From Candidatus Syntropharchaeum caldarium (lineage in GTDB: Archaea; Halobacteriota; Syntropharchaeia; Syntropharchaeales; Syntropharchaeaceae): a stretch of DNA of 32,000 nt. The DNA lies in assembly GCA_001766815.1 (NCBI GenBank), contig LYOS01000004.1:163610-195609 (forward strand), in the 5' to 3' direction. Position numbers and translations under genes: made by a program. Positions 978-31,670 of this stretch are shown here, one piece after another. Position 1 is the first letter of the stretch, and each line of letters opens with the position of its first letter. The notes beneath the pieces were generated by a model, which worked only from the letters and a program-made list of their open reading frames with translations, was not told where the DNA came from and did no database searches.

Positions 978-1639
978 CGCTCAATCATCTCATCATAGAT
1001 TTCAGTGGCTCTGTGTGCCGGGTCATCTGCTTCTGTGATCGCTCGCCCGACGACCTCATAGTCAGCACCCGCAAGAATTGCATCTCCGATTACGCCACCC
1101 TGTGCCCCAATACCTGGCGAGATCACATAGACATCGCTGGGCAGGATCTCTTTTAACTTTTTGATTCGATCTGGTTTTGTTGCAGGAAGCACCACTCCAT
1201 CCACGCCTATGTAGTTAAGATCCTTCGCAATCCGCTCTGCGGCATAATCCAGATAATCTGATGAGCCGGGGTGTGTCATCTCAACAACGACGATCAGATC
1301 GCCCATCTCAAGCTTTCTGATTGCGCTAATTACATCTCTGCCCACAAATCCCTGCACAATTACACAATCAGCACCTGAACGATATGCGATCGCTGCAATC
1401 CTTTCACTGATATGGGGTATGTCTGCGATCTTACCATCATAGATCAGGGGTAGACTTGTCGCAAGTTTTATCCGTTCGATCGCATGCCATCCAAGCTGCA
1501 TCTCACATGTCCTCCCGATCTTGATCGCAAAGTTACCTTTTGCATACTCAAGTTCTTCTGCAAGTTCAATTGCGACCGGCATATCTTCCATATCAAATGC
1601 GACAATAATACCGGGTTCATCACGTTTCAGGATTGACAT
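956..1639 (-). CDS. pyrF: orotidine 5'-phosphate decarboxylase
   Basis: 227 aa. Motifs IIVAFDM, YDGKIADIPHI (the D-x-K-x-x-D-I-P catalytic motif), GADCVIVQGF, VEMTHPGS, ISPGIGAQGG and VVGRAI are colinear with archaeal OMP decarboxylases. The ATG overlaps the stop of the upstream gene (TAATG). Confidence 0.8.
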   Translation of the reverse strand: MSILKRDEPGIIVAFDMEDMPVAIELAEELEYAKGNFAIKIGRTCEMQLGWHAIERIKLATSLPLIYDGKIADIPHISERIAAIAYRSGADCVIVQGFVGRDVISAIRKLEMGDLIVVVEMTHPGSSDYLDYAAERIAKDLNYIGVDGVVLPATKPDRIKKLKEILPSDVYVISPGIGAQGGVIGDAILAGADYEVVGRAITEADDPAHRATEIYDEMIERWKKSSL

Positions 1640-3048
1640 TATACACCACCAGATTTAATCCCAGCCTTCGCAAGAATTCCTCTCCCTGCAAGTACGCCTG
1701 TTGCCGATGCGTTGACGATATCCCGCGATAATCCTGAGCCATCACCTGCTGCAAACAGTCCTTCAATATTAGTCTCCATCTCTGGAGTGAGATCGAATTC
1801 CATTGCATAGAACTTGACCTCAGGCGCATAGAGAAGCGTGGAATCGGAAGCAACGCCAGGGATTATCTCGTTCAGCTTCTCAAGCCCTTCGATGATGTCC
1901 ATCGTGATCCTGTGTGGGAGTGCCATCGATATATCGCCTGGTGTCACGTCGTCGAGCGTATTCTGAACATTGTTTCCTCTTATTGACTTCCATGTGGAAC
2001 GTCTGCCACGCCGTAGATCTCCCATCCGCTGGAGCAGAGGTTTGCCGCCACCTATCGTTGTCGCAAGCTTCGATACCGATCTACCATATTTTGTTGTGTT
2101 TTCCAGTGGTTCTGTCAGCTCCAGTCGGACAAGGAACGCAAAGTTGGTGTTTTCAGATCGTTTGTTCTTCATGGAGTGACCATTCACGCCGATAAATCCT
2201 TCATAAGTCTCTTTCACAACAAAACCGTGTTCATTGGTGCAGAATGTTCTTGTAAAGTCATCATATCGCGCACTTCTGATATAGAACTTTGGATCGCGAT
2301 TGATCTTTGTAACAGGATCCATGATGATGGCTGGAACCTCCACCCTCACGCCGATGTCAATAGGAGCGTGATTTGCCCGAATATTATGTCTTACCACCAT
2401 ATCATTGATCCATGTCGCTCCAACTCTGCCTGGTGCGAGAAGCGTATACTTTGATAGGATACACGCGCCATCTTCAAGCTCAACCCCTTTGCATACACCA
2501 TCCTCAACGATGAGATCTGATACCGTTGTATTCAGTAAAAATTCAACCCCTCCCTCATCAAGATGGTTTTTGAAGTTCTGGATAACTCGCTGTGTATTGT
2601 CTGTTCCAATGTGACGCTGGATGATGTCAACAAACTTTGCACCAACCGATGCTGAGATCCGCTTCAACTCCTCGATCGCCTCAGCGCTCGCATTGGAAAG
2701 GGCTGATGGTGCACCAAACTTGAGAAAGATCCGATCCACATACTCGACAAGATCCCATGCATACGCCTCGCTTCCTGTCAGTTTTGCCAGATCTCCTCCA
2801 ATGTCAGGCCGTAAATTGAGCGTGCCATCAGAAAATGTCCCAGATCCACCAACACCGCACATTATGTCGCAGTGATCACATTCAAGACAGAATCCTTTGG
2901 TATTCATTGGACAGCGCCGTTTTGAAACGTCTTTGCCCATGTCTACGATCAATATTTTAAGGTCATGCCCCAGAAGTTCGTTTGCTGCAAAAAGTCCGGC
3001 AGGGCCTGCACCGATGATCAGTACATCAACTTCTTCTCTATTCATCAT
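1639..3048 (-). CDS. FAD-dependent dehydrogenase (COG2509-like, uncharacterized)
   Basis: 469 aa. N-terminal dinucleotide-binding motif VLIIGAGPAGLFAA, C-terminal GLFAAGDGSG motif, and a Cys cluster CPMNTKGFCLECDHCDIMCGVGG. Confidence 0.65.
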   Translation of the reverse strand: MMNREEVDVLIIGAGPAGLFAANELLGHDLKILIVDMGKDVSKRRCPMNTKGFCLECDHCDIMCGVGGSGTFSDGTLNLRPDIGGDLAKLTGSEAYAWDLVEYVDRIFLKFGAPSALSNASAEAIEELKRISASVGAKFVDIIQRHIGTDNTQRVIQNFKNHLDEGGVEFLLNTTVSDLIVEDGVCKGVELEDGACILSKYTLLAPGRVGATWINDMVVRHNIRANHAPIDIGVRVEVPAIIMDPVTKINRDPKFYIRSARYDDFTRTFCTNEHGFVVKETYEGFIGVNGHSMKNKRSENTNFAFLVRLELTEPLENTTKYGRSVSKLATTIGGGKPLLQRMGDLRRGRRSTWKSIRGNNVQNTLDDVTPGDISMALPHRITMDIIEGLEKLNEIIPGVASDSTLLYAPEVKFYAMEFDLTPEMETNIEGLFAAGDGSGLSRDIVNASATGVLAGRGILAKAGIKSGGV

Positions 3049-3134
3049 GCCACTAAGTTTTATTTAGATCTATCTTATAAACGTTACACATCAAAAAGGG
3101 TAATTCATGTATAAATTCAGAGATGGGGTGAATC

Positions 3135-5903: not shown

Positions 5904-6647
5904 TCAAGATACTTCACGACCCAGACGCTTAAGAAAGTTTTCGTAACTGTATCTGAATACCTCTTCCTCAGGATCAAGTTCTATCGCTTTTTCAAAGAGC
6001 GTTCTGGCATCTTCAAACTCCTCCATCTCCGTCAAAAAAACCGCATAGTTGTGGAGTATCACTGCATCCTCTGGAATAAGTTTAAGAAGGCGCTGATACT
6101 CCTTTCTTGCCTCTTCAAACTGCCCGGTATGCTTAAACAACTCAACAAGAAAGTGATGCGCATTGAGATCCAGTGGTTGATCTTCAAGGATTGCTTTAAA
6201 AATCTTCTCTGCATTATCAGCGTTTTTAGCGGCATTCTTGTAGATGACATACGCTGGTACATGCAGATCTGCAAGATACAGCTTCACAAGGTTTTTTGAA
6301 TCGTCATCTGTAGCTCCCGTGCGGATAATCTCTTTGAACCTGCCATACATGACTCCAATGAAGATTCCCTCCAGTTCATCCACCTCTACTCCGATTTCAC
6401 ACTCATCGAGAAAGTATTCAGAGAGTCCAAGAGACTCGATTAGTTCATGCGAGTCCATACCTTCCTCCTCAGGAAAGTACTGCTCAATAAACCACGGGGC
6501 AAACCTGTTGAATGCAGACTCACATGCCGCGCCGCTCTCGAAAACAAGCGAATCTGTCCCGAAAAACTCCGTGAATGCAGCGTAAAAAAAGGCGTTTGCA
6601 ACCTGTTTCATATTTACATCATCAAATTCGTGCATAAAATCCTCCAT
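5904..6647 (-). CDS. TPR repeat protein
   Basis: 247 aa. The C-terminal half has three or four tandem 34-residue helical repeats with TPR-like A/F/Y/L spacing (EKIFKAILEDQPLDLNAHHFLVELF..., EEARKEYQRLLKLIPEDAV..., EDARTLFEKAIELDPEEE). Confidence 0.55.
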   Translation of the reverse strand: MEDFMHEFDDVNMKQVANAFFYAAFTEFFGTDSLVFESGAACESAFNRFAPWFIEQYFPEEEGMDSHELIESLGLSEYFLDECEIGVEVDELEGIFIGVMYGRFKEIIRTGATDDDSKNLVKLYLADLHVPAYVIYKNAAKNADNAEKIFKAILEDQPLDLNAHHFLVELFKHTGQFEEARKEYQRLLKLIPEDAVILHNYAVFLTEMEEFEDARTLFEKAIELDPEEEVFRYSYENFLKRLGREVS

Positions 6648-6770
6648 TCCTATTATGACCTTCCTGTATATATTGGCTTTCCCTCATAGCAACAGGATGA
6701 AATCGTTAAGTTTAAGTAGAATCCGCCTGAATAATACTTACCTATAACGGCGTGATTAAGGTGGAGGAAG

Positions 6771-13009: not shown

Positions 13010-13056
13010 TTTTTTAATTAAATATACGTATGAAAGGGGTTAAAATAAAACCCCTT
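13010..13056. terminator. bidirectional terminator candidate between convergent genes
   Basis: T6 run at 13010-13015 just after the plus-strand stop. Hairpin AAGGGGTT (13034-13041) / AACCCCTT (13049-13056) with a 7-nt A-rich loop. The right arm overlaps the CBS gene stop. Confidence 0.4.
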
Positions 13057-13513
13057 ACATACCACCAAAATCGGTTGTGACCCCGCGCCAATCTCGTGCG
13101 TAGATTGCAGCTTCAGCAAACTTCTGTACCGCTGCTTCTGCTGCTTTATCCTCGCTCGTGAGTAGTGATCTTGCAGTGATAATCCCAATTATTTTTCCTT
13201 TCTCTGTTACAAGTATTCTTCTTAGGTTTTTCCCACCAAGAACCCTCGCAGCCTCCTCTACAGGTGCATCTGCTTCGATCGTCACAAGATATCTCGACAT
13301 AACCTCGCTCATCGGTACTTCACTCGCTTTTTTATCTGCTGCCACGACGTTTATCGCGATATCCCTGCCTGTTGCAATTCCAACAGGCTCACCAGACTTT
13401 GTGACGACAATTGCACCTATCTTCTTCTCTTTCATTATTGCAGCGGCTCTGTCGGCGGTTGTTTCCACATCACACGAGATGATTGGGCTTGACATGATCT
13501 CACGAACTTTCAT
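13055..13513 (-). CDS. CBS domain-pair protein
   Basis: 152 aa. Two CBS repeats (MSSPIISCDVETTADRAAAIMKEKKIGAIVV... and VMSRYLVTIEADAPVEEAARVLGGKNLRRILV...). GGAGGT SD upstream. Confidence 0.8.
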   Translation of the reverse strand: MKVREIMSSPIISCDVETTADRAAAIMKEKKIGAIVVTKSGEPVGIATGRDIAINVVAADKKASEVPMSEVMSRYLVTIEADAPVEEAARVLGGKNLRRILVTEKGKIIGIITARSLLTSEDKAAEAAVQKFAEAAIYARDWRGVTTDFGGM

Positions 13514-13633: not shown

Positions 13634-13654
13634 GATGCATCATCAAGATGCATC
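13634..13654 (-). terminator. hairpin + T-rich tract downstream of the cytochrome c gene
   Basis: GATGCATC (13634-13641), ATCAA loop, GATGCATC (13647-13654). The 8-mer is self-complementary, so the two copies form an 8-bp stem. On the minus strand it is followed by CACTTTTATTTATAATTT. Confidence 0.35.
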
Positions 13655-13679: not shown

Positions 13680-14069
13680 CTATTTATGGCACTCACTATC
13701 CATACATCCCAAATCGCTGTGTCCTACTCCTCCCTTATCGGGGTGAACATTCGTATCCACACCCGAACCATGGCATTGTGTGCAACTTTCTACATACTGC
13801 GATATGTGATCCTCTTTATCTGCATGGCACTTTATACAGTTTGCCCAGTGACCTGATGGCTCAGCAGCCCCTGGGGTTACGGTTGGTGTTACTGTTGGTG
13901 CTGGTGTAGGAGTTGGGGTTGGAGCTGGTGGCGCCTCCTCCCCGAGACATCCTGCCATGAGCACAAGTGATACCACAATGGTTGCGATGATCAGTCTCCT
14001 CATAGCTTCACCTCTCTGTATGCAGCATCCATCTTCGTTGCGATATTTTTTTGTCATATTAGATCCCAT
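13680..14069 (-). CDS. small tri-haem c-type cytochrome, lipoprotein-type signal
   Basis: Two CxxCH motifs (CIKCH, CTQCH) and one CxxxxCH (CMDSECH) within about 55 residues, plus four further His as candidate distal ligands. Signal MRRLIIATIVVSLVLMAGC has a lipobox-like LMAGC, followed by the Pro/Thr linker APPAPTPTPTPAPTVTPTVTP. There are two candidate starts. ATG 14069 has leaderless-type spacing from a TATA box and conserved first codons. ATG 14003 lies 5 nt after a GAGGTGA SD and would give 108 aa. Confidence 0.75.
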   Translation of the reverse strand: MGSNMTKKYRNEDGCCIQRGEAMRRLIIATIVVSLVLMAGCLGEEAPPAPTPTPTPAPTVTPTVTPGAAEPSGHWANCIKCHADKEDHISQYVESCTQCHGSGVDTNVHPDKGGVGHSDLGCMDSECHK

Positions 14070-14098
14070 TTAAATCTTTATCTTCACATTATATATAT
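14070..14098 (-). promoter_or_regulatory. TATA-box promoter module of the cytochrome c gene (copy A of a duplicated module)
   Basis: The minus strand reads ATATATATAATGTGAAGATAAAGATTTAA followed by ATG (14069). The A/T octamer lies 22-29 nt upstream of the ATG, the spacing expected for a leaderless archaeal mRNA. Near-identical to 23320-23348. Confidence 0.45.
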
Positions 14099-14203
14099 GT
14101 TGGCATACTTTTCTTCAACATTTAATATTCTCTGGTGCATTCGCCAACCTCATACCGTAGAATAACTCTTTTACCATTATATCATATACCTTTATAGAGC
14201 ATG

Positions 14204-14224
14204 GTCTCATAGAAATGATGAGAC
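14204..14224 (+). promoter_or_regulatory. inverted repeat between the putative hypE TATA box and its start codon
   Basis: GTCTCAT (14204-14210), 7-nt spacer, ATGAGAC (14218-14224). A TTTATAGA TATA-like element lies at 14191-14198 and the hypE ATG at 14250. Confidence 0.25.
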
Positions 14225-14249
14225 GATATGTAAAAGAGGGATCACCAGA

Positions 14250-15317
14250 ATGATGAATTCAAGACATATCACGATAGCCCACGGCGCTGGCGGAGAGACG
14301 ATGCAGGAATTGATTAAAGGCACCATTCTGAGGTATCTCAGCGATCAGAAACAGGCAAAAAAGGTTGCTGTTCCCCTGGAAGCACTGGATGACTCTGCAG
14401 TTATAGACGATATTGTCTTCACGATAGATTCGCATACTGTTACACCGTTGTTTTTTCCTGGTGGTGATATTGGGAGCCTGGCTGTGAGTGGAACGATAAA
14501 CGACATCGCAGTAATGGGTGCTGAGCCAATTGCTTTATCGTCTGCTTTTGTCATCGAAGAAGGCTTTCTTTTTGATAAACTGGAAAAGATTTTAGAAAGT
14601 ATGTGCAGAACATGTGTGCAGGCTGGTGTTCCGATAATCACGGGTGACACAAAGGTGATGGAGAGTGGTGCTATTGAGAAGTTGACAATCACAACTTCTG
14701 CAATTGGAAGAAGAACTGAAATATTAGAGGAAAACCTGAGTGAAGTTAAAAAGTACAGAAAATTAAACGAGAGATGGGTGAGAGACTGCAATCTGAAAGA
14801 TGGAGATAGAATAATTGTTTCTGGGACGATTGGGGATCATGGGATCTCTTTAATCTCTTTCAGAGAGGGGTACGGTTTTGAGAGCGAAGTTCAATCAGAT
14901 ATCACGCCTCTGAACAGGATGATTGAAGAGGCACTGAAGGTGGGTGGTATCGTCTCGATGAAAGACCCAACAAGAGGAGGGCTGGCGAATGCGTTGAACG
15001 AACTGAGCGAAAAATCGAGTGTTGGAATTTTGATAGAAGAAGAGAAAGTTCCGATAAGAGAAGCTGTTAGATCGGCATGTGAGATGCTGGGGATGGATGC
15101 GTTGGAGATAGGAAATGAGGGAAAGGTTGTGATGGGTGTGGTAAAAGAAAAGGCAGAAGAGGTTTTAAAGTCATTGAGAAAGACAGAAGAAGGGAAGGAT
15201 GCAGAAATTATAGGCGTTGCAACGAAAAAAATCAAAGGTGTGGTGATGGAAACGAGTGTTGGTGGGAAAAGGATAGTAGAGGCGCCTGCTGGAGATCCTG
15301 TGCCGAGGATATGCTAA
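14250..15317 (+). CDS. hypE: hydrogenase maturation protein HypE (carbamoyl dehydratase)
   Basis: 355 aa with a PurM/AIR-synthase-like fold signature (HGAGG, DDSAV, TGDTKV). The C-terminus ends in the diagnostic PRIC motif. Confidence 0.92.
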   Translation: MMNSRHITIAHGAGGETMQELIKGTILRYLSDQKQAKKVAVPLEALDDSAVIDDIVFTIDSHTVTPLFFPGGDIGSLAVSGTINDIAVMGAEPIALSSAFVIEEGFLFDKLEKILESMCRTCVQAGVPIITGDTKVMESGAIEKLTITTSAIGRRTEILEENLSEVKKYRKLNERWVRDCNLKDGDRIIVSGTIGDHGISLISFREGYGFESEVQSDITPLNRMIEEALKVGGIVSMKDPTRGGLANALNELSEKSSVGILIEEEKVPIREAVRSACEMLGMDALEIGNEGKVVMGVVKEKAEEVLKSLRKTEEGKDAEIIGVATKKIKGVVMETSVGGKRIVEAPAGDPVPRIC

Positions 15318-16387
15318 CGTCCATGCCTCAACAGTATATTACAACTCCCTTCTCTGGATACCATACAGGGTCCAACAGGATGCTGAGGTGTGCAGGCTCC
15401 TCCAAAAAGTGGACACTCATCAGAATAGATGATTCCTCGCAGAACTTCTCCGCATTTGCACCCCTCTGGCTCTTTAAACTCTCTTTGCTGCAGTTCTTTT
15501 AACTCATCCTCAAATCGTTTTCTTGAATCGTATCTCTCAAATTCCTCTTTTAACGAGAAGCCACTCTCTGGTATAACAGAAAAACCTCTCCAGCCAAGAT
15601 CACTTTGCCTGAAAACCTCGTCCATCACCTTCAGTGCTTTCTTATTTCCTTCCTCTTTAACCACTCTTGTGTATTCATTTTCCACCCTTGCTTCGCCATT
15701 TTTTATCTGCCTGGCGATCATGTACACGCCCATTAACAGATCCAGTGGCTCAAATCCAGCGATTACCTGTGGAACGTTGAATTTTTGAGAGATGAGCTCA
15801 TAAGGCTTTGTTCCTATGATCGTACTCACATGCCCAGGGTCTATGAAACCATCGATCTTCAGCTCGCCCATTTTGAGCAGGACTTCCATCGCGGGTGGGA
15901 TTGCCCTGTGGCATGTCAAAACAGAGAAATTTTCGGGCGGGTTGTTTAGGATGGTAGAGGCAGTGGACGGAGCAGTGGTCTCAAATCCTATCGCCATGAA
16001 CACAAGATCTTTCTCTATCTTTTTTGCGATCTCGATGCTCTCATTTATGCTGTACACCGTTCTTATGTCACAACCCTCTGCTTTTGCATCAAAAAGCGAG
16101 CCATTCTCGCCTGGAACACGCAGCATGTCTCCAAAGGTTGCTATCGTCTTCCCTTTCATCGCTAAAGTAATCGCTTCATCAATCTCCATAGGTGTTGTAA
16201 CACAGACCGGACAACCCGGTCCCTGTCTGATCTCAACACCAGCATCACACAAGAGATCACTCAGTCCAAACCTGACCAGTGTGTCCTGATGTGTGCCACA
16301 GACATGCATGATCCTGATCTCCAGATTGAGCTCTTTCAATCGCTCTAAAATCCTTTTTGCGATATCTTTCTCCCGGTATCTAAACAT
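15314..16387 (-). CDS. hypD: hydrogenase maturation protein HypD
   Basis: 357 aa. HVCGTHQD, GPGCPVCVT, GFETTAP and DPGHVS motifs, and C-terminal CxxH-type cysteines. Its stop overlaps the hypE stop on the opposite strand. Confidence 0.92.
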   Translation of the reverse strand: MFRYREKDIAKRILERLKELNLEIRIMHVCGTHQDTLVRFGLSDLLCDAGVEIRQGPGCPVCVTTPMEIDEAITLAMKGKTIATFGDMLRVPGENGSLFDAKAEGCDIRTVYSINESIEIAKKIEKDLVFMAIGFETTAPSTASTILNNPPENFSVLTCHRAIPPAMEVLLKMGELKIDGFIDPGHVSTIIGTKPYELISQKFNVPQVIAGFEPLDLLMGVYMIARQIKNGEARVENEYTRVVKEEGNKKALKVMDEVFRQSDLGWRGFSVIPESGFSLKEEFERYDSRKRFEDELKELQQREFKEPEGCKCGEVLRGIIYSDECPLFGGACTPQHPVGPCMVSREGSCNILLRHGR

Positions 16388-16390
16388 CTA

Positions 16391-16765
16391 TCAACCCTCT
16401 ACCTCTACCACAATATTCTTTATTTTACACTCGTTTCCACCAACTATTTTAACGGAGGCACCACATGCTGGACATGTTAGCTTTGGGAAGATGTGAAGCG
16501 ATAAATCCTTTTCGTAATCAATTTCACCCTCATATTCACAGCTATTACAGCTAACCATGGCCTTCTTCTCTTCGATGATCAGTTCAGATCTCTCTAATAT
16601 AGAATTTCTGGATAAGACCTCATAGGCGAACTCCATCTGCTCTCTTCCGAAAAGCGTAAGCTCCCCTATCTCCAGGTGAACTTCTTTCACATCAGTTACA
16701 CTGTGCTTTTTCACCTCTTCCAATACAACATCCACAATTTGTGCCATTGTTGAAAATTCGTGCAT
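16391..16765 (-). CDS. hypA: hydrogenase nickel-insertion protein HypA
   Basis: The canonical N-terminus MHEFS (the Met1-His2-Glu3 Ni site) begins at ATG 16765. Zn-finger motifs CNSC...CPAC. The track ORF extends to a GTG at 16789, adding eight residues that would destroy the N-terminal Ni site. Confidence 0.85.
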   Translation of the reverse strand: MHEFSTMAQIVDVVLEEVKKHSVTDVKEVHLEIGELTLFGREQMEFAYEVLSRNSILERSELIIEEKKAMVSCNSCEYEGEIDYEKDLSLHIFPKLTCPACGASVKIVGGNECKIKNIVVEVEG

Positions 16766-16807
16766 GTTCACGCTACGGGTCGAAAACACCCGGTATTCCC
16801 ATCATAT

Positions 16808-17047
16808 TCAAAACTCCTCCCTTAAAACACCAACTCGATCCTCCAAAAGATCTCTCCACAGATCTAAAGTCTCCTTTGCCCCCTCTTCATCGATCACCTC
16901 TATCGCAAAACCAGCATGGACGATTACGTATTCCCCGGGTTTAACATCAACCAGTGATACGTTAACAGTCTGTAAAACCCCCCCAAAATCCACTCTCGCA
17001 TCGTTACCATCGATCTCCACGACTTTTCCTGGAACCGCAAGGCACAT
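16808..17047 (-). CDS. hypC: hydrogenase assembly chaperone HypC/HupF family
   Basis: 79 aa with the diagnostic N-terminus MCLAVPGKVVEI (essential Cys2). Confidence 0.92.
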   Translation of the reverse strand: MCLAVPGKVVEIDGNDARVDFGGVLQTVNVSLVDVKPGEYVIVHAGFAIEVIDEEGAKETLDLWRDLLEDRVGVLREEF

Positions 17048-17077
17048 AAATAAACCTCCATCCTGTCTGTTATATAT

Positions 17078-19273
17078 TTAACGTTCTAATCTCACACCAG
17101 CAACCGCATTCTGTCCAATGGATATTCCGCCATCCCCATTTGGAACTTGATCGTGCGTCAAAAATTCAAGACCACCATCTTCTACGAACTTCTCCACGAT
17201 CTTCACAATCGGTACATTATACGAAACACCGCCCGTGATACCAATATATCTAATCCCATTCGCATTGGCATTCTCAATTGCAACTTCTGTCATCTTCTTG
17301 AGCAAAGCATAAACGAAAGAATATGCCAGATCAGCTTTCCTGGACTTATCTGGATATTCGGATAACTGATCAAACAATGGAAGCGTTCTAACGATTTTAT
17401 CGTCTACCACTTCTGTTTCAAAATCAATTTTCCTCTCTCCTGCATTCAGATACCGCTCAAGTCTCATCGCGGGTTCCCCATCGTACGTCCTTTTAATTCC
17501 AATATCCAGATAACATGATAGTGCATCCAGAACCCGACCAAAGCTACTCGTTGTGGGGCTTTTCTTCATCAAATTTCTCAAAATATCCGTCTCTTTCTCT
17601 TCAAAATAACCTGAATTCTTCCCCAGCATCTCAAAAATCGCAAAAACAATTCTTCTTGGATCTCTGGTGGCTGCATCTCCTCCAATAAGTGGAATCTGCT
17701 CCAAATGCCCTATTCTCTCAAAAGAATCAAAAGAAGAGATCAGAATCTCTCCACCCCAGATACTTCCATCTGTGCCATATCCTGCCCCATCCAGCGTTAG
17801 AGCGATAATTGGTTCTTCTACCCCATTGTCAACCATCAAAGAGACAGCATGAGCCCAGTGATGCTGCACTTCAAATATTTCAGCAGAAAATCTTTCGGTC
17901 AGATCTCTTCCAAAGTGTCTGGTCAGATATCTTGGATGCAGATCAATGCCAATCCCGCTGATCTCTTTTATGTCCAGTAGATTTATCAGATGATCAGTGG
18001 CTGAGGCTAAAAATTCTAATGAGGGATAATAGCTTGTGTTCCCGATGTACTGTGTTATGTAGAGTTCCCCATCTGTTGAAACGCTCACAGAGACGTTTTT
18101 CTCTGCACCAACGCCTATCACGTTTTTTCTATGTGGAACTTTGATTTTATGCGGCACAAAACCCCTCGATCTTCTCAAAAAGAATTTTTTATCATTGTAA
18201 AAACGTATAACCGAATCATCAACTCTGTTTAATATTTCCCTGTTGTGCAGAAGATATACATCCACATTTAAGTTAAACGCATCTTCATTTCTGGTTATCA
18301 TCGGCTCTCCAGGCAGATTTGCAGAGGTCATTATTATGCCATCGCTCTTTAGATAGTGAAAAAAGATATGGTGAAGGGCTGTGTAAGGCAGATAAATTCC
18401 AGCGGTGTCAAGTCCAGGCGAGATGCCATCTAAAACCCCAAACTTATCTTCACTTTTCTTCAAAACAACTACTGGACGCTGGGGGGATCTCAAAGCCTCC
18501 TCTTCATGCTCCCCAATGTACACATACTCACTTGCAGTTTCCAGGTCTCTCATCATAACTGCAAAAGGCTTTGCCTCCCTCCTGTACCATTCTCTGAATC
18601 TTCCCACCTCCTCAAAGTTACAGACCAGGTGCATTCCACCCCAGCTCTTCATTATACCAGTTGCTCCATCATCTATGAACTTTGCAAATGTTTTAATCGG
18701 ATTGCCCTCAATAGCATTTTTCTCTTCATCATAGAGCATGTATTTTGGACCGCACTCTGGACAGGAGATTGTTTGGGCGTGAAATCTCCGATTTAAAGGA
18801 TCTCTGTATTCTTCTTTGCAATTCCTGCACAGGGAAAACTCGCTCATAGAGGTCTTCTCTCTGTCGTATGGCACATCTTTAATCAGAGAGAAGCGTGCAC
18901 CGCAGTTTGTGCAATTTGTGAATGGATAGAGATAACGGCGATTGCCTCTGTCAAATATCTCGTCAAGGCATTCATCACATGTCGCAGTATCTGGTGGAAC
19001 GAGGGAAGATTTTACACCTTCACTGCTTTCCAGGATTACAAAACCTTCATACTTTCCCTGCTCTTCTTTCAATGATATCTCGTCTATCGAGGCGTTATCA
19101 GGGATCTCTCTTCTTAGTGCCTTTAAGAACTCATCTTCTCTTTTATCAAGAAAGATCTCTACATTCGAGCCTTTGTTCAGTACATATCCATTTATCCCCA
19201 GTGAATTCGCAACTCTGTATACAGTAGGACGAAAACCAACTCCCTGTACTGTGCCCTTAACGAAAACCTTCAT
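17078..19273 (-). CDS. hypF: carbamoyltransferase HypF
   Basis: 731 aa. Acylphosphatase-like N-terminus (VKGTVQGVGFRPTVY). Two zinc-finger pairs (CDECLDEI...NCTNCGARF; CRNCKEEY...CPECGPKY). YrdC-like and Kae1-like C-terminal halves. Confidence 0.93.
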   Translation of the reverse strand: MKVFVKGTVQGVGFRPTVYRVANSLGINGYVLNKGSNVEIFLDKREDEFLKALRREIPDNASIDEISLKEEQGKYEGFVILESSEGVKSSLVPPDTATCDECLDEIFDRGNRRYLYPFTNCTNCGARFSLIKDVPYDREKTSMSEFSLCRNCKEEYRDPLNRRFHAQTISCPECGPKYMLYDEEKNAIEGNPIKTFAKFIDDGATGIMKSWGGMHLVCNFEEVGRFREWYRREAKPFAVMMRDLETASEYVYIGEHEEEALRSPQRPVVVLKKSEDKFGVLDGISPGLDTAGIYLPYTALHHIFFHYLKSDGIIMTSANLPGEPMITRNEDAFNLNVDVYLLHNREILNRVDDSVIRFYNDKKFFLRRSRGFVPHKIKVPHRKNVIGVGAEKNVSVSVSTDGELYITQYIGNTSYYPSLEFLASATDHLINLLDIKEISGIGIDLHPRYLTRHFGRDLTERFSAEIFEVQHHWAHAVSLMVDNGVEEPIIALTLDGAGYGTDGSIWGGEILISSFDSFERIGHLEQIPLIGGDAATRDPRRIVFAIFEMLGKNSGYFEEKETDILRNLMKKSPTTSSFGRVLDALSCYLDIGIKRTYDGEPAMRLERYLNAGERKIDFETEVVDDKIVRTLPLFDQLSEYPDKSRKADLAYSFVYALLKKMTEVAIENANANGIRYIGITGGVSYNVPIVKIVEKFVEDGGLEFLTHDQVPNGDGGISIGQNAVAGVRLER

Positions 19274-19938
19274 CTGTCCCCCTCGATCAACGCAGATAAC
19301 AGCTCTTCCACTCCGGTGCCGTGTTTCGCATCGGTCATAAAGAACTTTCCATGAGGGGACAGTCTTTTGAAATCCTCTAAAATAACAGCAGGGTCAACCT
19401 CAATTAGCTCTGCCAGATCGATCTTGTTCAATACAACAAAATCGGTTTGTGCAAAGATCAACGGGTGTTTTCTTACCATGTCATCACCCTCGGTCACCGA
19501 TATAACGACAACTCTTTTCTCAGTTCCTAAAGGAAAATCAACAGGACAAACGAGATTTCCAACGTTTTCAATGAATAATATCTCCAATTTACTGAGATCT
19601 AATGATTCTAAGGCATGATTTATTAAATGGGCATCTAAATGGCATTCTTTCCCAGTATTTACATTTATAGCCTGAACCCCAAGTCTTAAAAACCTTTTAT
19701 AATCGTCATCTCCTGCGACATCCCCCGCTATGGTCCCAGCTCTCATCCCTCTTTCACTCAGCAGATCTATCATCCTCTCGATCAGCGTGGTTTTTCCAGA
19801 CCCTATAGACCCTAAAATGTCGTATGCTTTTACCTCGTGACTTTCCAATACAGACCTGTTCTCCTTCGCAATTCTTCTGTTTACACCAAGAATATCGCTT
19901 TCCATCTGTATATCCACGGTCTTATGCATATGTATCAC
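19270..19938 (-). CDS. hypB: hydrogenase nickel-incorporation GTPase HypB
   Basis: 222 aa. P-loop GSIGSGKTTLIE, IENVGNLVCP and LNKIDL motifs. No His-rich N-terminus. ATGA overlap with hypF. Confidence 0.9.
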   Translation of the reverse strand: MIHMHKTVDIQMESDILGVNRRIAKENRSVLESHEVKAYDILGSIGSGKTTLIERMIDLLSERGMRAGTIAGDVAGDDDYKRFLRLGVQAINVNTGKECHLDAHLINHALESLDLSKLEILFIENVGNLVCPVDFPLGTEKRVVVISVTEGDDMVRKHPLIFAQTDFVVLNKIDLAELIEVDPAVILEDFKRLSPHGKFFMTDAKHGTGVEELLSALIEGDR

Positions 19939-20425
19939 AATAATATAGATCTTGCACTGAATTTAAGCGTGATAATTCATCAAGTATTCGCCTGACAACC
20001 TCTGGAATTGTTTTTTCCACCTCTGGTGTTAATCCGATGCCGAATTCATCACTTTTTTCAACCTCAATCCCCACAATCGTGATATCATCTGGCATCGATT
20101 CTGGCATAATCGTCTCTCCTATCCTGAGCACATCGACCAGTCCAAGATCGTGAAGTGAGAAGTTAACAGATTCTGGTTCTGGCAGATCATTGCCCTTAAT
20201 GATATGGATCGTTCCGATATCACCACCGGTCCTCACAGCATCGACAATGATGATCTTCTCCGCGTCTTCGATCAGGTTCAGGATTGAAAGCCCACCAGTA
20301 CCCGCATCGACCAATTCCACATAATCGGGCAACTCCTCCTTCCTGAGTTCCTCTAAAACGTAGATTCCAATGCCATCATCTAAAGCCAGAGGGTTTCCAC
20401 AGCACAGGATCAGAACTTTTTTCAA
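19922..20425 (-). CDS. [NiFe]-hydrogenase maturation endopeptidase (HyaD/HybD/VhoD family)
   Basis: 167 aa. N-terminal LILCCGNPLALDDGIG motif (GN-x4-DDG-x-G). Positioned directly after the large subunit. Confidence 0.85.
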   Translation of the reverse strand: MKKVLILCCGNPLALDDGIGIYVLEELRKEELPDYVELVDAGTGGLSILNLIEDAEKIIIVDAVRTGGDIGTIHIIKGNDLPEPESVNFSLHDLGLVDVLRIGETIMPESMPDDITIVGIEVEKSDEFGIGLTPEVEKTIPEVVRRILDELSRLNSVQDLYYCDTYA

Positions 20426-20431
20426 TTTATC

Positions 20432-21985
20432 TTAAACCACCTTGACCTCGTACTTCTTTCTGCTATCCCTCAGGTCCACTGTATGCACGGCACATGCTAT
20501 ACATGGATCGAACGAGCGGACGGTATGCAGGATCTCAATCGGATTGTCTGGAGCAGTTACTGGTGTACCAACTACAGCCTGTTCAACAGCCCCCAGCTTG
20601 CCATCATCATCACGTGGCGAGCAATTCCATGTTGTTGGGACTACGAGCTGGTATCTCTCCAGTTTACCATCTTTTATACTTGCCCAATGCCCCAGTGATC
20701 CTCTGGGTGCCTCTGTCAAGCCTACCCCGGTTGCTGAACTCGGCAGTTCTGCAGGCTCATAGAACTTCCCATCTATGTCAACACCAAGAAGCCATTCCTT
20801 CAGTTTGGCGAGAACCCTCACAGCCTCATGAAGTCTCGCCAGTGTTCTTGTGTACACATTTGCACCAAGTTTGGTAGCCAGGTCAAGAACCAGGGGGTCT
20901 CTGTCATTGATCATTCTTGCCAGTGGACCCACCTCTGTGGGCATGTCATTATATCGTGGAGCCTTCATCCAGGTATACTTATCTTTGCTCGTGAAGTCTG
21001 GATCCTCAATTGGTTCTGTGAACCCCTCGTTAGGATGCTTTCCACCAGTATAGCCACTATACCATGAATACGCTATGTACTCAGTTACTTTTTCTGGATC
21101 AAAGGCATTGAAGTCTCCATCATAAAATCCGGGCTTCAACCATCTCCCATCCCCCTCATAAAATGCGCCATATGAGAGGAATCCACACTCACCTGCCCCG
21201 TACCCACCATATGCATGAAGTCCGAGGTTGATATCTTCAATCGGGCCCCCATATCGAATCAAAAGACCTATATCGCTATTTGCATGGCTTTCGCTTTCGT
21301 CTAACCAGGCCACCACATCATCCAGGCTCCTGTTCTCCAACCACCGATCAACGGAGCACCCAAGTACCTGTTCTTCTACGAAGCTCTTACTCTCTAACCA
21401 CAGTGAATATGCTTTAACAATGTCTCCAACGTCAGGCCTAACTGTAACTCCGCCAGGTATATACGTCATGTGATGGGGCATCTTCCCACCGAAGATGGCT
21501 ATGATCTCGTGGAGCTTTTTTCTGACCATAACTGCCCTGATCCATGAGCTACCTGTAAACGCAGCAAATCTACGGCTAAGTTCATTATATACACTGCCGG
21601 CCCCCGCCGCCTCTAAAATGTCTTTGTATACAGGATTTGCCAGATCTGGTGCCCATAATGCATAAAAGTGTGTTGCATGACTCATTATATTATTGGAGCC
21701 CAATATGATGTTCCTGATCAGTTTCGCATTTTCTGGCACAGAAGCATCAAATGCATCATCCAGACACCGTATCGATGCTGTGGCATGCGCTACTGGACAG
21801 ACTCCACATGCTCTTTGAGTTATGATAGAAGCATCTCTTGGATCCCTTCCTATCAGTATGTTCTCCAGTCCCCTGTACATCATGCCAGAACTCCATGCAT
21901 CCGTTACTTTTCCCCCATCTACATTTGCTCTGATCTTTAAATGCCCTTCAATTCGTGTTAACGGATCGATGGTCACTTCTACCAT
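20432..21985 (-). CDS. [NiFe]-hydrogenase large subunit (group 1-like, membrane/extracytoplasmic uptake type)
   Basis: 517 aa. N-terminal RIEGH. Ni-Fe ligand motifs QRACGVCPVAH and C-terminal DPCIACAVH, followed by a 16-aa extension (TVDLRDSRKKYEVKVV) of the kind removed by the endopeptidase. It pairs with a Tat-signal small subunit. Confidence 0.92.
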   Translation of the reverse strand: MVEVTIDPLTRIEGHLKIRANVDGGKVTDAWSSGMMYRGLENILIGRDPRDASIITQRACGVCPVAHATASIRCLDDAFDASVPENAKLIRNIILGSNNIMSHATHFYALWAPDLANPVYKDILEAAGAGSVYNELSRRFAAFTGSSWIRAVMVRKKLHEIIAIFGGKMPHHMTYIPGGVTVRPDVGDIVKAYSLWLESKSFVEEQVLGCSVDRWLENRSLDDVVAWLDESESHANSDIGLLIRYGGPIEDINLGLHAYGGYGAGECGFLSYGAFYEGDGRWLKPGFYDGDFNAFDPEKVTEYIAYSWYSGYTGGKHPNEGFTEPIEDPDFTSKDKYTWMKAPRYNDMPTEVGPLARMINDRDPLVLDLATKLGANVYTRTLARLHEAVRVLAKLKEWLLGVDIDGKFYEPAELPSSATGVGLTEAPRGSLGHWASIKDGKLERYQLVVPTTWNCSPRDDDGKLGAVEQAVVGTPVTAPDNPIEILHTVRSFDPCIACAVHTVDLRDSRKKYEVKVV

Positions 21986-21987
21986 TT

Positions 21988-23175
21988 TTATTCCCTCCTA
22001 TCCTTGAGATATCGAGCTGCTGCGAGGGTCCCTGCCCCAACCGCCGCTGCTGCACCGAATCCTGGTGCCACCTCTTCTGTTGCCGTTGGCGTTCCTGTTG
22101 GCGTTGCCGTGGGTGTAACTGGCGTTGCCGTTGGTTTTTCAACAGATGATGTTGCTGTGGCCCCTGATGGAAGATAAAACGGAGATTTACCATCCGGGAA
22201 GTCTGGCTCAGCACAACCAATACATGGTGCGCCTGCCTGGGTGCACATGTTTCTACCGTTGTTCCAGAGCCTCAATGGGCACTCAGCCGAAGTAAATGGA
22301 CCCTTGCATCCAAGCCCATATAAACAGTACTCCATTCCAAATTTCAGAGCTTCATAATAGCCCCTTCTCGGACATGTCTCATGGATTGACTCTCCAAAGA
22401 ACGCTGTGGGTCTATTATACTCATCCAGCTCTATATCACCCGTTTTTCCAAGTATAACCGCAGCCAGTGTGGACATGACCCAATCAGGATGAGTTGGGCA
22501 ACAGGGGAGATTTATCACAGGCAATCCAGCCTTTGATCTATAGTTCTCCCCCAAAATCCCACCTTTCTCCTTTCTATAGAACTGGAGCCCGCTACAATCA
22601 CTTGGATTCGGATCTCCCGCAGGTATTCCACCATAAGAGGCACAGGATCCAACAGCCACTGTAGCCAGTGAGTGGGGTGCCAGATCTTCTATGATCTTCT
22701 TAAATGGTTCTCCACCAACCCTGCAGAAATTCCCTGTGCCATCTGGACCCCGCGGGATAGCACCTTCAACAACCAGCACGAAGTCCTTTTCACTCTCTTT
22801 GATCAGCTCCAAAGCATAGTTCGCATTTAAATCAGCGTTCTCTACAGGCACTCCATCAACAAAAAGACCCTGTTGAATCATCACTGTCTCCCAGTATTGT
22901 GGAACGACGTTCAGATCCATTATCGCCTGGATCACATCAGGTTGTTCTGCATTCAGGAAGGAGATGGTGCATCCCGCACAGTCCTGTCCTTCTAACCATA
23001 TAAGATTGGTACTGGTGCTACTTTCCATAAGTCCTCGTACAATCTCTGTCTTATATGTCCCCAGAAAAATACTGGCGCCCACTGCTCCCACAACTTTAAG
23101 AAAAGTCCTTCTATCCAGATTCAGTATATCTATATTCCTTAGATCTTCTATTTTTGTTAATTTAAGATCCTTCAT
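21988..23175 (-). CDS. [NiFe]-hydrogenase small subunit, Tat-exported, with C-terminal Thr/Pro linker and PGF-CTERM signal
   Basis: 395 aa. Twin-arginine signal LDRRTFLKVVGAVGASIFLG. Fe-S ligand motifs WLEGQDCAGC, GSCASYGG, HETCPRRG, CLYGLGCKGP and CIGCAEPDFPD. The C-terminus is ...KPTATPVTPTATPTGTPTATEEVAPGFGAAAAVGAGTLAAARYLKDRRE. Confidence 0.92.
   Translation of the reverse strand: MKDLKLTKIEDLRNIDILNLDRRTFLKVVGAVGASIFLGTYKTEIVRGLMESSTSTNLIWLEGQDCAGCTISFLNAEQPDVIQAIMDLNVVPQYWETVMIQQGLFVDGVPVENADLNANYALELIKESEKDFVLVVEGAIPRGPDGTGNFCRVGGEPFKKIIEDLAPHSLATVAVGSCASYGGIPAGDPNPSDCSGLQFYRKEKGGILGENYRSKAGLPVINLPCCPTHPDWVMSTLAAVILGKTGDIELDEYNRPTAFFGESIHETCPRRGYYEALKFGMEYCLYGLGCKGPFTSAECPLRLWNNGRNMCTQAGAPCIGCAEPDFPDGKSPFYLPSGATATSSVEKPTATPVTPTATPTGTPTATEEVAPGFGAAAAVGAGTLAAARYLKDRRE
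21991..22065 (-). other. PGF-CTERM archaeosortase-type sorting signal (last 25 codons of the small subunit)
   Basis: PGFG, then a 14-residue Ala/Gly-rich hydrophobic stretch, then the basic tail RYLKDRRE. It is preceded at 22066-22167 by a Thr/Pro-rich linker. This matches the tripartite PGF-CTERM architecture by eye; no HMM was run. Confidence 0.6.
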
Positions 23176-23319
23176 TTAAATCCCCCCAAAGTATCCAGAG
23201 TTGTGGCTGATCCCGGCCGTCTCCATTGTCTCGAACGCGATAGCAGTCCTGCTGAACGTACGCCTCGACAGTTCAACATCATCAAATAAATTATACTTTT
23301 CAGTCACATTTGACCCCAT
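23176..23319 (-). CDS. 47-codon upstream ORF / leader peptide preceding the hydrogenase small subunit (hypothetical)
   Basis: My translation is MGSNVTEKYNLFDDVELSRRTFSRTAIAFETMETAGISHNSGYFGGI*. The TAA at 23178-23176 abuts the small-subunit ATG (23175) in the same frame. A TATA-like octamer lies 22-29 nt upstream of its ATG. The first nine codons are shared with the cytochrome c ORF, differing mainly by synonymous changes. It is too short for the supplied ORF track. Confidence 0.45.
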   Translation of the reverse strand: MGSNVTEKYNLFDDVELSRRTFSRTAIAFETMETAGISHNSGYFGGI

Positions 23320-23348
23320 TATAAACTTTAACTTCACAATATATATAC
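23320..23348 (-). promoter_or_regulatory. TATA-box promoter module of the hydrogenase operon (copy B of a duplicated module)
   Basis: The minus strand reads GTATATATATTGTGAAGTTAAAGTTTATA followed by ATG (23319). The spacing and sequence match 14070-14098. A purine-rich GAAAAG (BRE-like) lies immediately upstream. Confidence 0.45.
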
Positions 23349-23508
23349 TTTTCATTCACTATATAAAAAGAACACTATACATGATTATAATTCATGCATA
23401 TAAAGGCTTAAACGGTTCCTGCAAATCCCATTGAAAACTGAGTCGCCCATGCTAAAAAATGCCCGGATAAGAACTTATGCCGCATCCTGCGAGCCGCTTC
23501 TCGCATCA

Positions 23509-28860: not shown

Positions 28861-29281
28861 GTAAAAACGCCCTGAACGCTCCTTTATGTAATCTTTCATA
28901 ATCAGGGCAGAAGAATAGATGACTTCTGCACTTACAGTCGCTCGATCCAAAGGAGTCGATAATATCAAAGGATGATGAGAGTTCTTCAGCAAGTACACAC
29001 TCATATTTTGCATCCAGTTCGGCAAAGATCAGGCCCAAAACTTTCATCTCGGGTAAGATGTAGTCGATATGCCAGAAGGTCTTCTTTTCAACCCTGAGAT
29101 GACGGGCTATTCGTGCTTCAATCCCACTCATTGCAGAGCCCACATACGCATAGAAACCTCTTCTAAAATAGATCTCGCCGAGTTTACCCACCTCAAGCTC
29201 TTTATCGTGACTGTTCTCGAGGAGGATGATATACGATCCCTTAATTCCAACCCTCCCCTCATACTTGATCAAGCTCTTCAA
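28850..29281 (-). CDS. DUF123 / GIY-YIG-like (Uri superfamily) domain protein
   Basis: 143 aa. GSYIILLE...VGKLGEIYFRRGFYAYVGSAMSG...RIARHL...KTFWHIDYIL matches the DUF123 pattern (G-x-Y-x-Y-V-G-S-A ... R-H ... H-W-H-I-D-Y-L). Its start overlaps the dtxR-like 3' end by 23 nt. Its 3' end overlaps the convergent VWA gene by 11 nt. Confidence 0.6.
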   Translation of the reverse strand: MKSLIKYEGRVGIKGSYIILLENSHDKELEVGKLGEIYFRRGFYAYVGSAMSGIEARIARHLRVEKKTFWHIDYILPEMKVLGLIFAELDAKYECVLAEELSSSFDIIDSFGSSDCKCRSHLFFCPDYERLHKGAFRAFLLIP

Positions 29282-29675
29282 GAAGTTTTTTACCCGCGGG
29301 GCTCTTTAACTGCGTTAAAAGACGTGTTATTGCTTCAACACTCTCAGGATTGAGGCAATGCTCTATTCCACATGCATCCCTGTTTGCAATCTCCTCATCA
29401 ACACCCAGAGTGGTCAGAAGATCAAATAACAGGTTGTGTCTTTTTGAAACAGACTTTGCGATCTTCTGTCCATCGCTTGTAAGTGTAATCCCCTTGTATT
29501 TTTCATATATTAAAAGTCCATCCTCATCAAGCTTCTGAACCATCTCTGTAACGCTTGGCGTTCGCACATTGAGACGTTGAGCGATTTCGCTCGCTCTTGC
29601 GTAACCTTTTTCACAAATGAGTTCGTATATAGCTTCCAGGTAATCTTCCGCGCTTCTTGAATGCATTTCAATCAC
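29259..29675 (-). CDS. DtxR/IdeR/MntR-family metal-dependent transcriptional repressor
   Basis: 138 aa. N-terminal winged HTH AEDYLEAIYEL...ARASEIAQRLNVRTPSVTEMVQKLDEDGL. Dimerisation/metal-site helix RHNLLFDLL...A..DACGIEH. No C-terminal SH3/FeoA-like domain. Confidence 0.85.
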   Translation of the reverse strand: MIEMHSRSAEDYLEAIYELICEKGYARASEIAQRLNVRTPSVTEMVQKLDEDGLLIYEKYKGITLTSDGQKIAKSVSKRHNLLFDLLTTLGVDEEIANRDACGIEHCLNPESVEAITRLLTQLKSPAGKKLLEELDQV

Positions 29676-29676
29676 C

Positions 29677-31389: not shown

Positions 31390-31622
31390 ACATCACCCAG
31401 AATTATTTTCTTTGCCATACCTCTACCGATGGCAATTCTCATCCCATCAACCTCAATAACAATTGGACCTCGTAGCGGTTGTCTCGTCATAACTCTCAAG
31501 ATCTTACCCTCTCTGATACCCATCGAGCGTATGTTGTGCTGAATTCCATGACCACCTGTAATCTTCTTAACTCTTCCAACCTCGCCTGGATTAAATTCCG
31601 TAAGCAGTCTTTCACCTGTCAC
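31386..31622 (-). CDS. feoA: FeoA family protein
   Basis: 78 aa with an SH3-like FeoA pattern (L..F.PGE.G.V..I.GG......L.SMGI.EG..L.V). GTG start. Confidence 0.8.
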   Translation of the reverse strand: MTGERLLTEFNPGEVGRVKKITGGHGIQHNIRSMGIREGKILRVMTRQPLRGPIVIEVDGMRIAIGRGMAKKIILGDV

Positions 31623-31670
31623 ATGACATAGGTAGTCCTAACTTTTTAAAAGGTTTTGGGTGCCTAACTC
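31623..31670 (-). promoter_or_regulatory. feoA promoter with flanking AGTTAGG repeats (candidate DtxR-family operator)
   Basis: On the minus strand, TTTTAAAAA (31651-31643) is centred about 25 nt upstream of the feoA GTG. The 7-mer AGTTAGG occurs twice (31669-31663 and 31643-31637), bracketing the TATA element. TTAGG is the core half-site of DtxR/IdeR boxes. Confidence 0.3.

Follow-up and report, generated by a model that had tools for sequence, protein, structure and literature searches.

Why would the gene for a small cytochrome c and the operon for a [NiFe] hydrogenase carry almost the same DNA in front of them? The question arises from a 32,000-nucleotide (nt) stretch of DNA, here called the window, which stems from Candidatus Syntrophoarchaeum caldarius; its cytochrome open reading frame (ORF) is identical (100%) to SCAL_001461. 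On the minus strand, a 55-nt cassette lies before the cytochrome gene (copy 1, 14043–14097) and again before the hydrogenase operon (copy 2, 23293–23347). They run in the same direction at a distance of 9,250 bp, one on each side of the entire cluster of hydrogenase and maturation (hyd-hyp) genes. The initial annotation had read them as a duplicated promoter followed by nine codons under selection as a peptide. Our analysis confirmed that a duplicated promoter-proximal module, present in the same orientation, links the cytochrome c gene with the hydrogenase operon, but it did not confirm a nine-codon peptide cassette. We conclude that the repeat very probably represents two paralogous, presumably active copies of the beginning of a formate dehydrogenase gene (fdhA), with core promoter, short 5′ untranslated region (5′ UTR) and five initial codons, recycled before the hydrogenase operon and an orphaned cytochrome gene.

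The likeness between the two copies is well above chance. In an ungapped comparison, positions 14043–14098 and 23293–23348 agree at 44 of 56 sites, exactly as had been counted by hand. Local alignment of both complete intergenic regions reached a score of 33 over 55 nt, compared with 10.2 ± 1.3 and a maximum of 17 for 2000 dinucleotide-preserving shuffles; the similarity thus withstood the shuffling check named in the initial annotation. When the window was compared with itself by blastn, the cassette pair was the top non-self match (E 9.5e-8; next best score 21). The 22-mer TATATATAWTGTGAAGWTAAAG is found in the window at the two cassette sites only, even with up to three mismatches allowed (0 expected). 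Between the loci, no similarity beyond chance was detected downstream of +27 or farther upstream of the cassette. A weaker upstream resemblance across an indel had also been proposed; this extension is weak, as gapped alignment stopped short of it, and what could be retained was a 15-mer related to GTGAMTGAAAAGTAT at 14105–14119. A scan of 185,579 species genomes with TATANTGTGAAGNTAAAGNTT, in a collection without S. caldarius, returned 28 matches in unrelated taxa, i.e., chance level. With TGTGAAGNTAAAGNTTNNAATGGG, a metagenome scan returned just the hydrogenase locus of a further, nearly identical strain (L037), apart from a single chance match. Copy 2 is identical in two other strains, L006 and L037.

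Both copies follow the minus-strand consensus TATATATA-W-TGTGAAG-W-TAAAG-N6-ATGGGRTCWAATRTGAC. The TATA box, TATATATA in either case, lies at 14090–14097 in copy 1 and at 23340–23347 in copy 2, and the upstream ATG at 14067–14069 and 23317–23319, respectively. Two distances given earlier had to be revised, both of them equal at the two loci: 6 rather than 8 nt separate TAAAG from this ATG, and the TATA run ends 20 nt before it (28 nt counted from the first T) rather than 29 nt.

The origin of the cassette can be read from relatives that still possess the complete operon. Among 5.8 billion proteins, the cytochrome has two homologues only, P0122 and P0124, and in both cases the gene is the third of an operon, behind genes for a 906-amino-acid (aa) molybdopterin enzyme exported by twin-arginine translocation (Tat) and for a 171-aa Fe-S protein. 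At locus L007, the first gene product is a formate dehydrogenase alpha subunit (TIGR01591, 8e-168; PDB 9vap_A FdhA, 1.6e-256) and the second has FDH3 beta as its nearest match. Formate is the probable substrate of the enzyme encoded by L007 and L043, where FdhA and FdhB score under the NCBIfam curated equivalog cut-offs. The gene order is fdhA-fdhB-cytochrome-CBS in L043, and an intact fdhA-fdhB-cytochrome series is also present in L007. The CBS-domain protein of L043 is 86% identical to that encoded 3′ of the window's cytochrome gene (13055–13513, minus strand), and the cytochrome-CBS pair of the window therefore occupies the orthologous place, with the CBS gene as synteny anchor to the ancestral operon.

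The cassette aligns to the promoter and start of fdhA in L007, which read TTTATATATA-GTGTAAAGTGAGACGTGTAGA-GGGATCTAAT-GTG ACA AAA AAA GAT GGT... and encode VTKKDGILDDVKLSRRTFTKVAAAFGAMATTGIG. For copy 1 the match spans exactly the 55-nt cassette (score 28; shuffles 10.6 ± 1.4, maximum 17), and for the hydrogenase locus it extends over 149 nt of promoter and coding start (score 56; shuffles 10.4 ± 1.3). In this alignment, "codons" 1–4 of the proposed peptide (ATGGGRTCWAAT) are the former fdhA 5′ UTR with its Shine-Dalgarno sequence, GGGATC at 14062–14067 in copy 1 and degraded to GGGGTC at 23312–23317 in copy 2. L007 has GAGGGATCTAAT here and no ATG; a GAG stands at the position of the upstream ATG, which is specific to the S. 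caldarius lineage. "Codons" 5–9 are the true first five codons of fdhA (GTG ACA AAA AAA GAT in L007). The former start codon is an ATG at 14055–14057 in copy 1, where fdhA codons 1–5 fill 14043–14057, and a GTG at 23305–23307 in copy 2.

In the promoter part, the S. caldarius copies agree at 23 of 28 positions without gaps and at 25 with gaps, and with L007 they share 19 and 20 of 28. Relative to L007, both have ATG for GAG and TAT for GAT. In the transcribed part, the cytochrome copy matches L007 at 23 of 27 positions and the hydrogenase copy at 19 of 27. This pattern fits a duplication inside the S. caldarius lineage, which would have been followed by faster decay of the hydrogenase-side stub.

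At the cytochrome locus, copy 1 breaks off behind fdhA codon 5, where it is joined immediately to the final ~39 nt of fdhB, the gene of the iron-sulfur subunit, and then to the cytochrome gene. Alignment with the fdhB-cytochrome junctions of L043 and L007 delimits the fdhB 3′-end remnant at 14000–14042 (minus strand). Its old frame reads DAAYREVKL*, a frame different from that of the cassette, and its TGA overlaps the cytochrome ATG. The sequence GATGCTGCATACA is invariant at the junctions of S. caldarius, L043 and L007, the ATGA overlap is kept, and the GAGGTGA Shine-Dalgarno sequence of the cytochrome gene sits within the remnant, i.e., it is inherited from the end of fdhB. The ATG at 14003 is indeed preceded by a Shine-Dalgarno sequence and reached without an intervening stop, as the initial annotation had stated. 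Judged from its homologues, this is most likely the real start of the cytochrome, since P0122 and P0124 begin with MKRLI... and MKHMI... at the equivalent Met and have no MGSN extension. The annotated 125-aa (or 129-aa) ORF should thus most likely be shortened by 18 (or 22) codons, to start at 14003. The public 125-aa model begins at the old fdhA start codon.

The cytochrome gene itself (SCAL_001461; 13680–14003, minus strand) encodes a lipoprotein with the signal peptide MRRLIIATIVVSLVLMAGC, a Pro/Thr-rich linker, which lies after the lipobox, and one domain with the haem-binding motifs CIKCH, CTQCH and CMDSECH. A terminator-like hairpin lies at 13634–13654. The C-terminal domain is 72% identical to that of P0122. 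P0122 and P0124 (200 and 176 aa, respectively) have an extra N-terminal domain with three more haem-binding motifs, and S. caldarius retains the signal peptide, the linker and the last domain only, with three such motifs; its cytochrome gene has therefore undergone an internal deletion, too.

At the hydrogenase locus, more of fdhA is left. A decayed 5′ end of 34 codons (23206–23307, minus strand), 71 of whose 102 nt are identical to L007 fdhA, includes the twin-arginine signal LSRRTF. It forms the body of an upstream open reading frame (uORF) of 47 codons plus TAA (23176–23319, minus strand), or 43 codons counted from the ancestral GTG. Residues 5–37 of the uORF are 55% identical to residues 1–33 of L007 FdhA (E 2e-10), with LSRRTF kept. 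The uORF stop directly abuts the ATG of the hydrogenase small-subunit gene in the same frame (TAA/ATG, 23176–23175), a junction correctly described before and present at this locus only. On the evidence of these alignments, the uORF is a decayed fdhA Tat-signal fragment and not a gene. No intact molybdopterin domains are retained, the 34 fdhA codons here and the 5 at the cytochrome locus being fragments.

When the uORF was searched as a separate protein against 1.84 billion representatives, homologues were confined to its own cluster, and its codon-usage score is not distinctive, being equalled by 24% of spurious open frames. The leader RNAs showed no structure above shuffled sequence (z-scores of 0.32 and, for the hydrogenase leader, 0.46), no alternative structures and no Rfam match. 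We also asked whether the uORF had been copied from the Tat signal of the small subunit itself; the shared RRTF was non-significant (equalled by 67 of 1000 shuffles), and the signal proved to be that of fdhA. Gene callers (L001, L006, L042) place a 59-aa protein at 23176–23355 that starts inside the promoter (MKSIYIVKLKFIMGSN...). This gene call upstream of the hydrogenase should be corrected to promoter plus formate dehydrogenase fragment.

Are the copies still promoters? In both of them TATATATA satisfies the methanogen TATA pattern TWTATATA, and 94% of mapped Methanocaldococcus jannaschii promoters have a TATA-to-start spacing of 23 ± 2 nt (PMC2699501). By this rule, transcription would begin between +2 and +6 relative to the upstream ATG; with a 2-nt shift of the TATA register, it would begin on the ATG. 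The spacer between TATA box and upstream ATG is 20 nt, compared with roughly 22–27 nt for leaderless mRNAs, with the TATA register ambiguous by ±2 nt. As a candidate B recognition element (BRE), a purine-rich GAAAAG directly precedes the TATA box of the hydrogenase copy; in the cytochrome copy this hexamer is shifted by 8–10 nt, and GCCAACA takes the place next to the box. The cytochrome gene has no upstream gene on the same strand, and its promoter must therefore lie within 14004–14249. No transcript-derived contigs with these genes were found, only one metagenomic contig.

We propose that both copies would still act as archaeal TATA promoters, with transcription starting at or within a few nt of ATGGG. 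The mRNAs would begin (AU)GGGRUCWAAU-RUG, i.e., with the old 8–12-nt fdhA leader and its start codon. Co-expression and co-regulation would then tie the hydrogenase operon to the surviving cytochrome, as formate dehydrogenase and cytochrome were tied once: if both copies are active, the two would be under the control that formerly governed the formate dehydrogenase operon with its cytochrome. Initiation by ribosomes may still occur at the old ATG (14057) or GTG (23307), from where they would read the relic frame, which would stop at the TAA/ATG before the hydrogenase gene or continue in frame into the cytochrome gene. Such translation would be a by-product and not a selected peptide.

Nearly all of fdhA and fdhB is gone from this S. 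caldarius locus, and the 9.25 kb that separate the two cassette copies are occupied by hypE and the hydrogenase operon. The simplest history suggested by the three sequences compared, and a plausible one, has three steps, possibly in this order: the hyd-hyp cluster would have inserted into fdhA near codon 35, the remainder of fdhA and fdhB would have been lost, and a second promoter copy would have been placed directly before the orphaned cytochrome gene, restoring its expression. In a 79%-identical relative (L002–L005), the hydrogenase stands among glycosyltransferase genes behind an unrelated promoter, and no homology to the cassette was found in the L002 hydrogenase promoter. With these different neighbours and promoter, the hyd-hyp cluster has therefore moved.

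Several points weigh against this account. Other TATA-like runs lie upstream at both loci (23360–23408 and 14160–14195). Terminator prediction gave none in the stretch from the upstream Fe-S gene to the small-subunit gene, so that other promoters, or read-through, could add to expression. Both the activity of the promoters and their co-regulation are deduced from sequence. As the 79% orthologue has a different promoter and different neighbours, the arrangement is of recent origin and limited to a single lineage. Elsewhere in the S. caldarius genome there may be more copies of the cassette or a complete fdh operon.

The best-surviving alternative, compatible with promoter reuse as an added layer, is that the conserved element consists chiefly of several binding sites for a single transcription factor and that selection has kept the promoters alike. 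We regard this as possible, albeit rather unlikely. It starts from a 16-nt direct repeat at the hydrogenase locus that flanks the TATA box and start region, one copy being coding and the other non-transcribed upstream DNA. The sequence GTGAATGAAAAGTATA (R1, 23344–23359, minus strand) overlaps the TATA box at its upstream end. It agrees at 15 of 16 positions with GTGACTGAAAAGTATA (R3, 23292–23307, fdhA codons 1–5), 52 nt away, a match not reached in any of 300 shuffles. At the cytochrome locus, an R1-like 15-mer, GTTGAAGAAAAGTAT (14105–14119, minus strand), lies 7 nt upstream of the TATA box, with three mismatches to the hydrogenase-locus 15-mer; when the region upstream of the TATA box was shuffled, 18 of 5000 shuffles matched equally well within the last 60 nt (P ~0.004). 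A third motif, R2, lies between box and start region (GTGAAGATAAAGATT, 14073–14087, and GTGAAGTTAAAGTTT, 23323–23337, both minus strand). The R1–R2 spacing is 22 nt at the hydrogenase and 32 nt at the cytochrome locus, i.e., about one helical turn apart, and the R2–R3 spacing is 30 nt at both. In L007, an R1-like TTGAAGAAAGG was also seen by eye on the upstream side of the fdhA promoter. A weight-matrix scan of the window ranked the six sites above all other matches, a result that is not independent support because the matrix was built from the same six sites.

Other observations speak against an array. The likeness of R2 and R3 between the loci is expected from common descent anyway, R3 is the old gene's coding sequence, and R2 is poorly conserved in L007 (GTGTAAAGTGAGA). 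No further R sites were found in the ~45 kb of S. caldarius DNA scanned, no factor is known for the motif, and the motif is A-rich within A+T-rich DNA. From sequence, the R1–R3 repeat may be either a phased regulator-binding array or a scar of rearrangements.

Could both copies instead be inert fossils, i.e., slowly decaying duplicate DNA beside genes that are transcribed otherwise and not co-regulated? Mismatches are spread evenly through the cassette, and the alternative TATA-like runs and the missing terminator prediction upstream of the hydrogenase copy would suit this reading. Between strains, 0 of 55 cassette positions differ against ~0.7 expected at the 1–1.4% divergence of the neighbouring genes, which is too low to show constraint. 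On the other hand, the similarity begins at the TATA box in all three comparisons, and neither the box nor its distance from the start region has changed, whereas the sequence just upstream of the box cannot be aligned even between the in-situ cytochrome locus and L007. Moreover, the monocistronic cytochrome gene needs a promoter in its 180-bp interval, where the cassette box is the only full TWTATATA match. A second copy exactly before the orphaned cytochrome gene would be hard to explain without selection for expression. We therefore consider inert copies improbable.

The initial annotation had taken MGSN(M/V)T(K/E)KY for a selected N-terminal or leader peptide within a translation-initiation or regulatory module shared by two exported redox proteins. 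For the 27 nt that follow the ATG, its tally of six differences was accurate (four synonymous changes, M/V and K/E). Four synonymous changes of six in the MGSN frame compare with one and none in the other frames, with a P of 0.005–0.014 under random substitution. Both frames are open up to the main start codon, an ATG or GTG behind a Shine-Dalgarno-like GGGRTC is kept at "codon 5" of both copies, and the distance from TATA box to ATG would permit a leaderless or very short-leader mRNA. However, the peptide frame is the ancestral fdhA frame, and in the intact gene its first four "codons" belong to the UTR. Of the six differences, three fall in true former codons of a once functional gene, and two of the four synonymous ones in the former UTR ("codons" 2–4). 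Conservation in the peptide part does not exceed that in the untranslated promoter (21 of 27 versus 23 of 28), and nothing is conserved between the loci past residue 9. The cytochrome family begins at the downstream Met; the uORF lacks homologues as a separate protein and distinctive codon usage, and its only changes between strains are two nucleotides in one codon, which are non-synonymous. With the usual 23 ± 2 nt spacing, the transcript would lack the first base or bases of the upstream ATG or all of it (start at +2 to +6), and "codons" 5–9 recur on the far side of the TATA box, in the 15/16 repeat, where they are untranslatable within this frame. Measured against fdhA, pN/pS is 0.24/0.50 for the uORF and 0.18/0.57 for the working cytochrome signal peptide. 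Lack of the cassette at orthologous loci had been named as refuting evidence; this was borne out in part, as the sole moderately diverged hydrogenase orthologue (79%, L002) does not have it. The excess of synonymous changes can be the legacy of a former working gene plus chance, and the sequence evidence for a functional present-day peptide is weak. Selection on a translated nine-codon peptide is thus the least probable of the explanations, at very long odds.

Reuse of the fdhA promoter bears on the electron transfer of the hydrogenase. S. caldarius is a butane-oxidizing archaeon, and the role of its hydrogenase in syntrophic alkane oxidation is unresolved. A Syntrophoarchaeum hydrogenase was found to be highly expressed during propane and butane oxidation with unknown function, and its role across the Syntrophoarchaeia is likewise not settled (PMC9539880). 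The repeat names a candidate redox partner, the small surface-tethered cytochrome c left with the same promoter. It also provides a history for a single cytochrome module, on which an enzyme for H2 and one for formate changed places. The mechanism is ordinary genome remodelling and not a new regulatory principle, and the hydrogenase-cytochrome link that it suggests is plausible.

The build of the hydrogenase is in keeping with such a partner. No cytochrome b gene is found in the window or in L002; in L039 and L040 (57–59% identical) one (PF01292) follows the large-subunit gene. The small subunits of S. caldarius and L002 end in a Pro/Thr-rich linker and a hydrophobic tail. In S. caldarius the end, PGFGAAAAVGAGTLAAARYLKDRRE, resembles a PGF-CTERM sorting signal, with no NCBIfam model match for it at E 0.1. 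Between the Pro/Thr linker regions of small subunit (21988–22140) and cytochrome (13876–13950), 70% identity over 57 nt was seen, a low-complexity match with an E of 0.35. By analogy with the periplasmic enzymes and cytochrome c3 of Desulfovibrio, a surface-tethered hydrogenase that would hand electrons to a surface-tethered small cytochrome is a reasonable reading, and the cytochrome is likely the electron acceptor of the cytochrome-b-less hydrogenase if the two are co-expressed. Tentatively, and with less confidence than in the promoter reuse itself, we suggest that the hydrogenase took over the slot, the promoter and the tethered cytochrome of an extracellular formate dehydrogenase, that the lipoprotein with three haem motifs would be its physiological acceptor, and that the relic leader is possibly translated and coupled through TAA/ATG to small-subunit synthesis.

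The surroundings of the two copies are as follows. On the minus strand, tatA and a gene for a 662-aa polyferredoxin/HdrA-like protein are followed by a 333-nt gap containing copy 2 and by the hyd-hyp operon (15314–23175), whose genes abut or overlap and were assigned by Pfam and NCBIfam matches. The operon begins with the [NiFe] hydrogenase small subunit (21988–23175; Tat signal, C-terminal Pro/Thr linker and hydrophobic tail), the large subunit (20432–21985; Pfam/NCBIfam) and the maturation protease (19922–20425), then hypB, hypF, hypC, hypA and hypD. On the plus strand, hypE (14250–15317; AIRS and AIRS_C domains) is divergent from the cytochrome gene. Beyond it come the 180-nt gap containing copy 1 and the cytochrome and CBS-domain genes on the minus strand. 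hypE and hypD are convergent with a 4-nt overlap at 15314–15317, and each transcription unit therefore ends within the other.

Two further minus-strand genes in the window, at 5904–6647 and 1639–3048, have TATA-like boxes that end 19 and 25 nt 5′ of the ATG, respectively, and no Shine-Dalgarno sequence; the boxes lie within 6648–6680 and 3049–3090. Leaderless or near-leaderless mRNAs may be common in S. caldarius. At 29259–31700, an operon of feoA, feoB and a DtxR-type repressor gene is preceded by GTTAGG-containing repeats 5′ of feoA. The repeats could be the operator of the DtxR-type repressor and are unrelated to the cassette motif.

How does the arrangement compare with known systems? In Desulfovibrio, periplasmic hydrogenases use cytochrome c3, and formate dehydrogenases pass their electrons to these same small cytochromes, which is the logic that we propose for the enzyme swap. 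FdhABC3 of Desulfovibrio vulgaris is a periplasmic formate dehydrogenase with a dedicated c-type cytochrome (PMC10920352). The operon of the relatives is alike, with a Tat-exported FdhA, an Fe-S FdhB nearest to FDH3 beta and a small multihaem cytochrome c in third place. It differs in being archaeal, and in S. caldarius the cytochrome is a lipoprotein on a Pro/Thr-rich tether and the dehydrogenase genes are gone from the window. S. caldarius has three haem-binding motifs, and P0122 and P0124 have six of the CxxCH/Cx4CH type; the cytochrome had no significant match to c3/c7 models. The hydrogenase resembles the cytochrome-b-linked group 1 [NiFe] enzymes of Vht/Vho type from Methanosarcinales and ANME-1c relatives in its Tat-exported small subunit, large subunit, protease and hyp genes. 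The closest of these are 57–59% identical; unlike them, it has no cytochrome b gene, and its small subunit has the extra Pro/Thr linker and hydrophobic tail.

uORF and leader-peptide systems share with the hydrogenase locus a short ORF with its own Shine-Dalgarno sequence and start codon and a TAA directly before the main ATG. In contrast to these and to termination-reinitiation systems, the ORF is here a recognizable gene fragment without a conserved peptide or alternative RNA structures, and it is absent at the 79% orthologue. The cassette agrees with archaeal TATA/BRE core promoters in its TATA pattern, in the A+T-rich stretch before the predicted start and in a compatible spacing of ~23 nt (PMC2699501). 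What sets it apart from such promoters, and from promoter reuse after gene replacement, is that the promoter is present twice, each time with a stub of the gene that it once served, and that one of these stubs forms a 47-codon open frame abutting the new gene.

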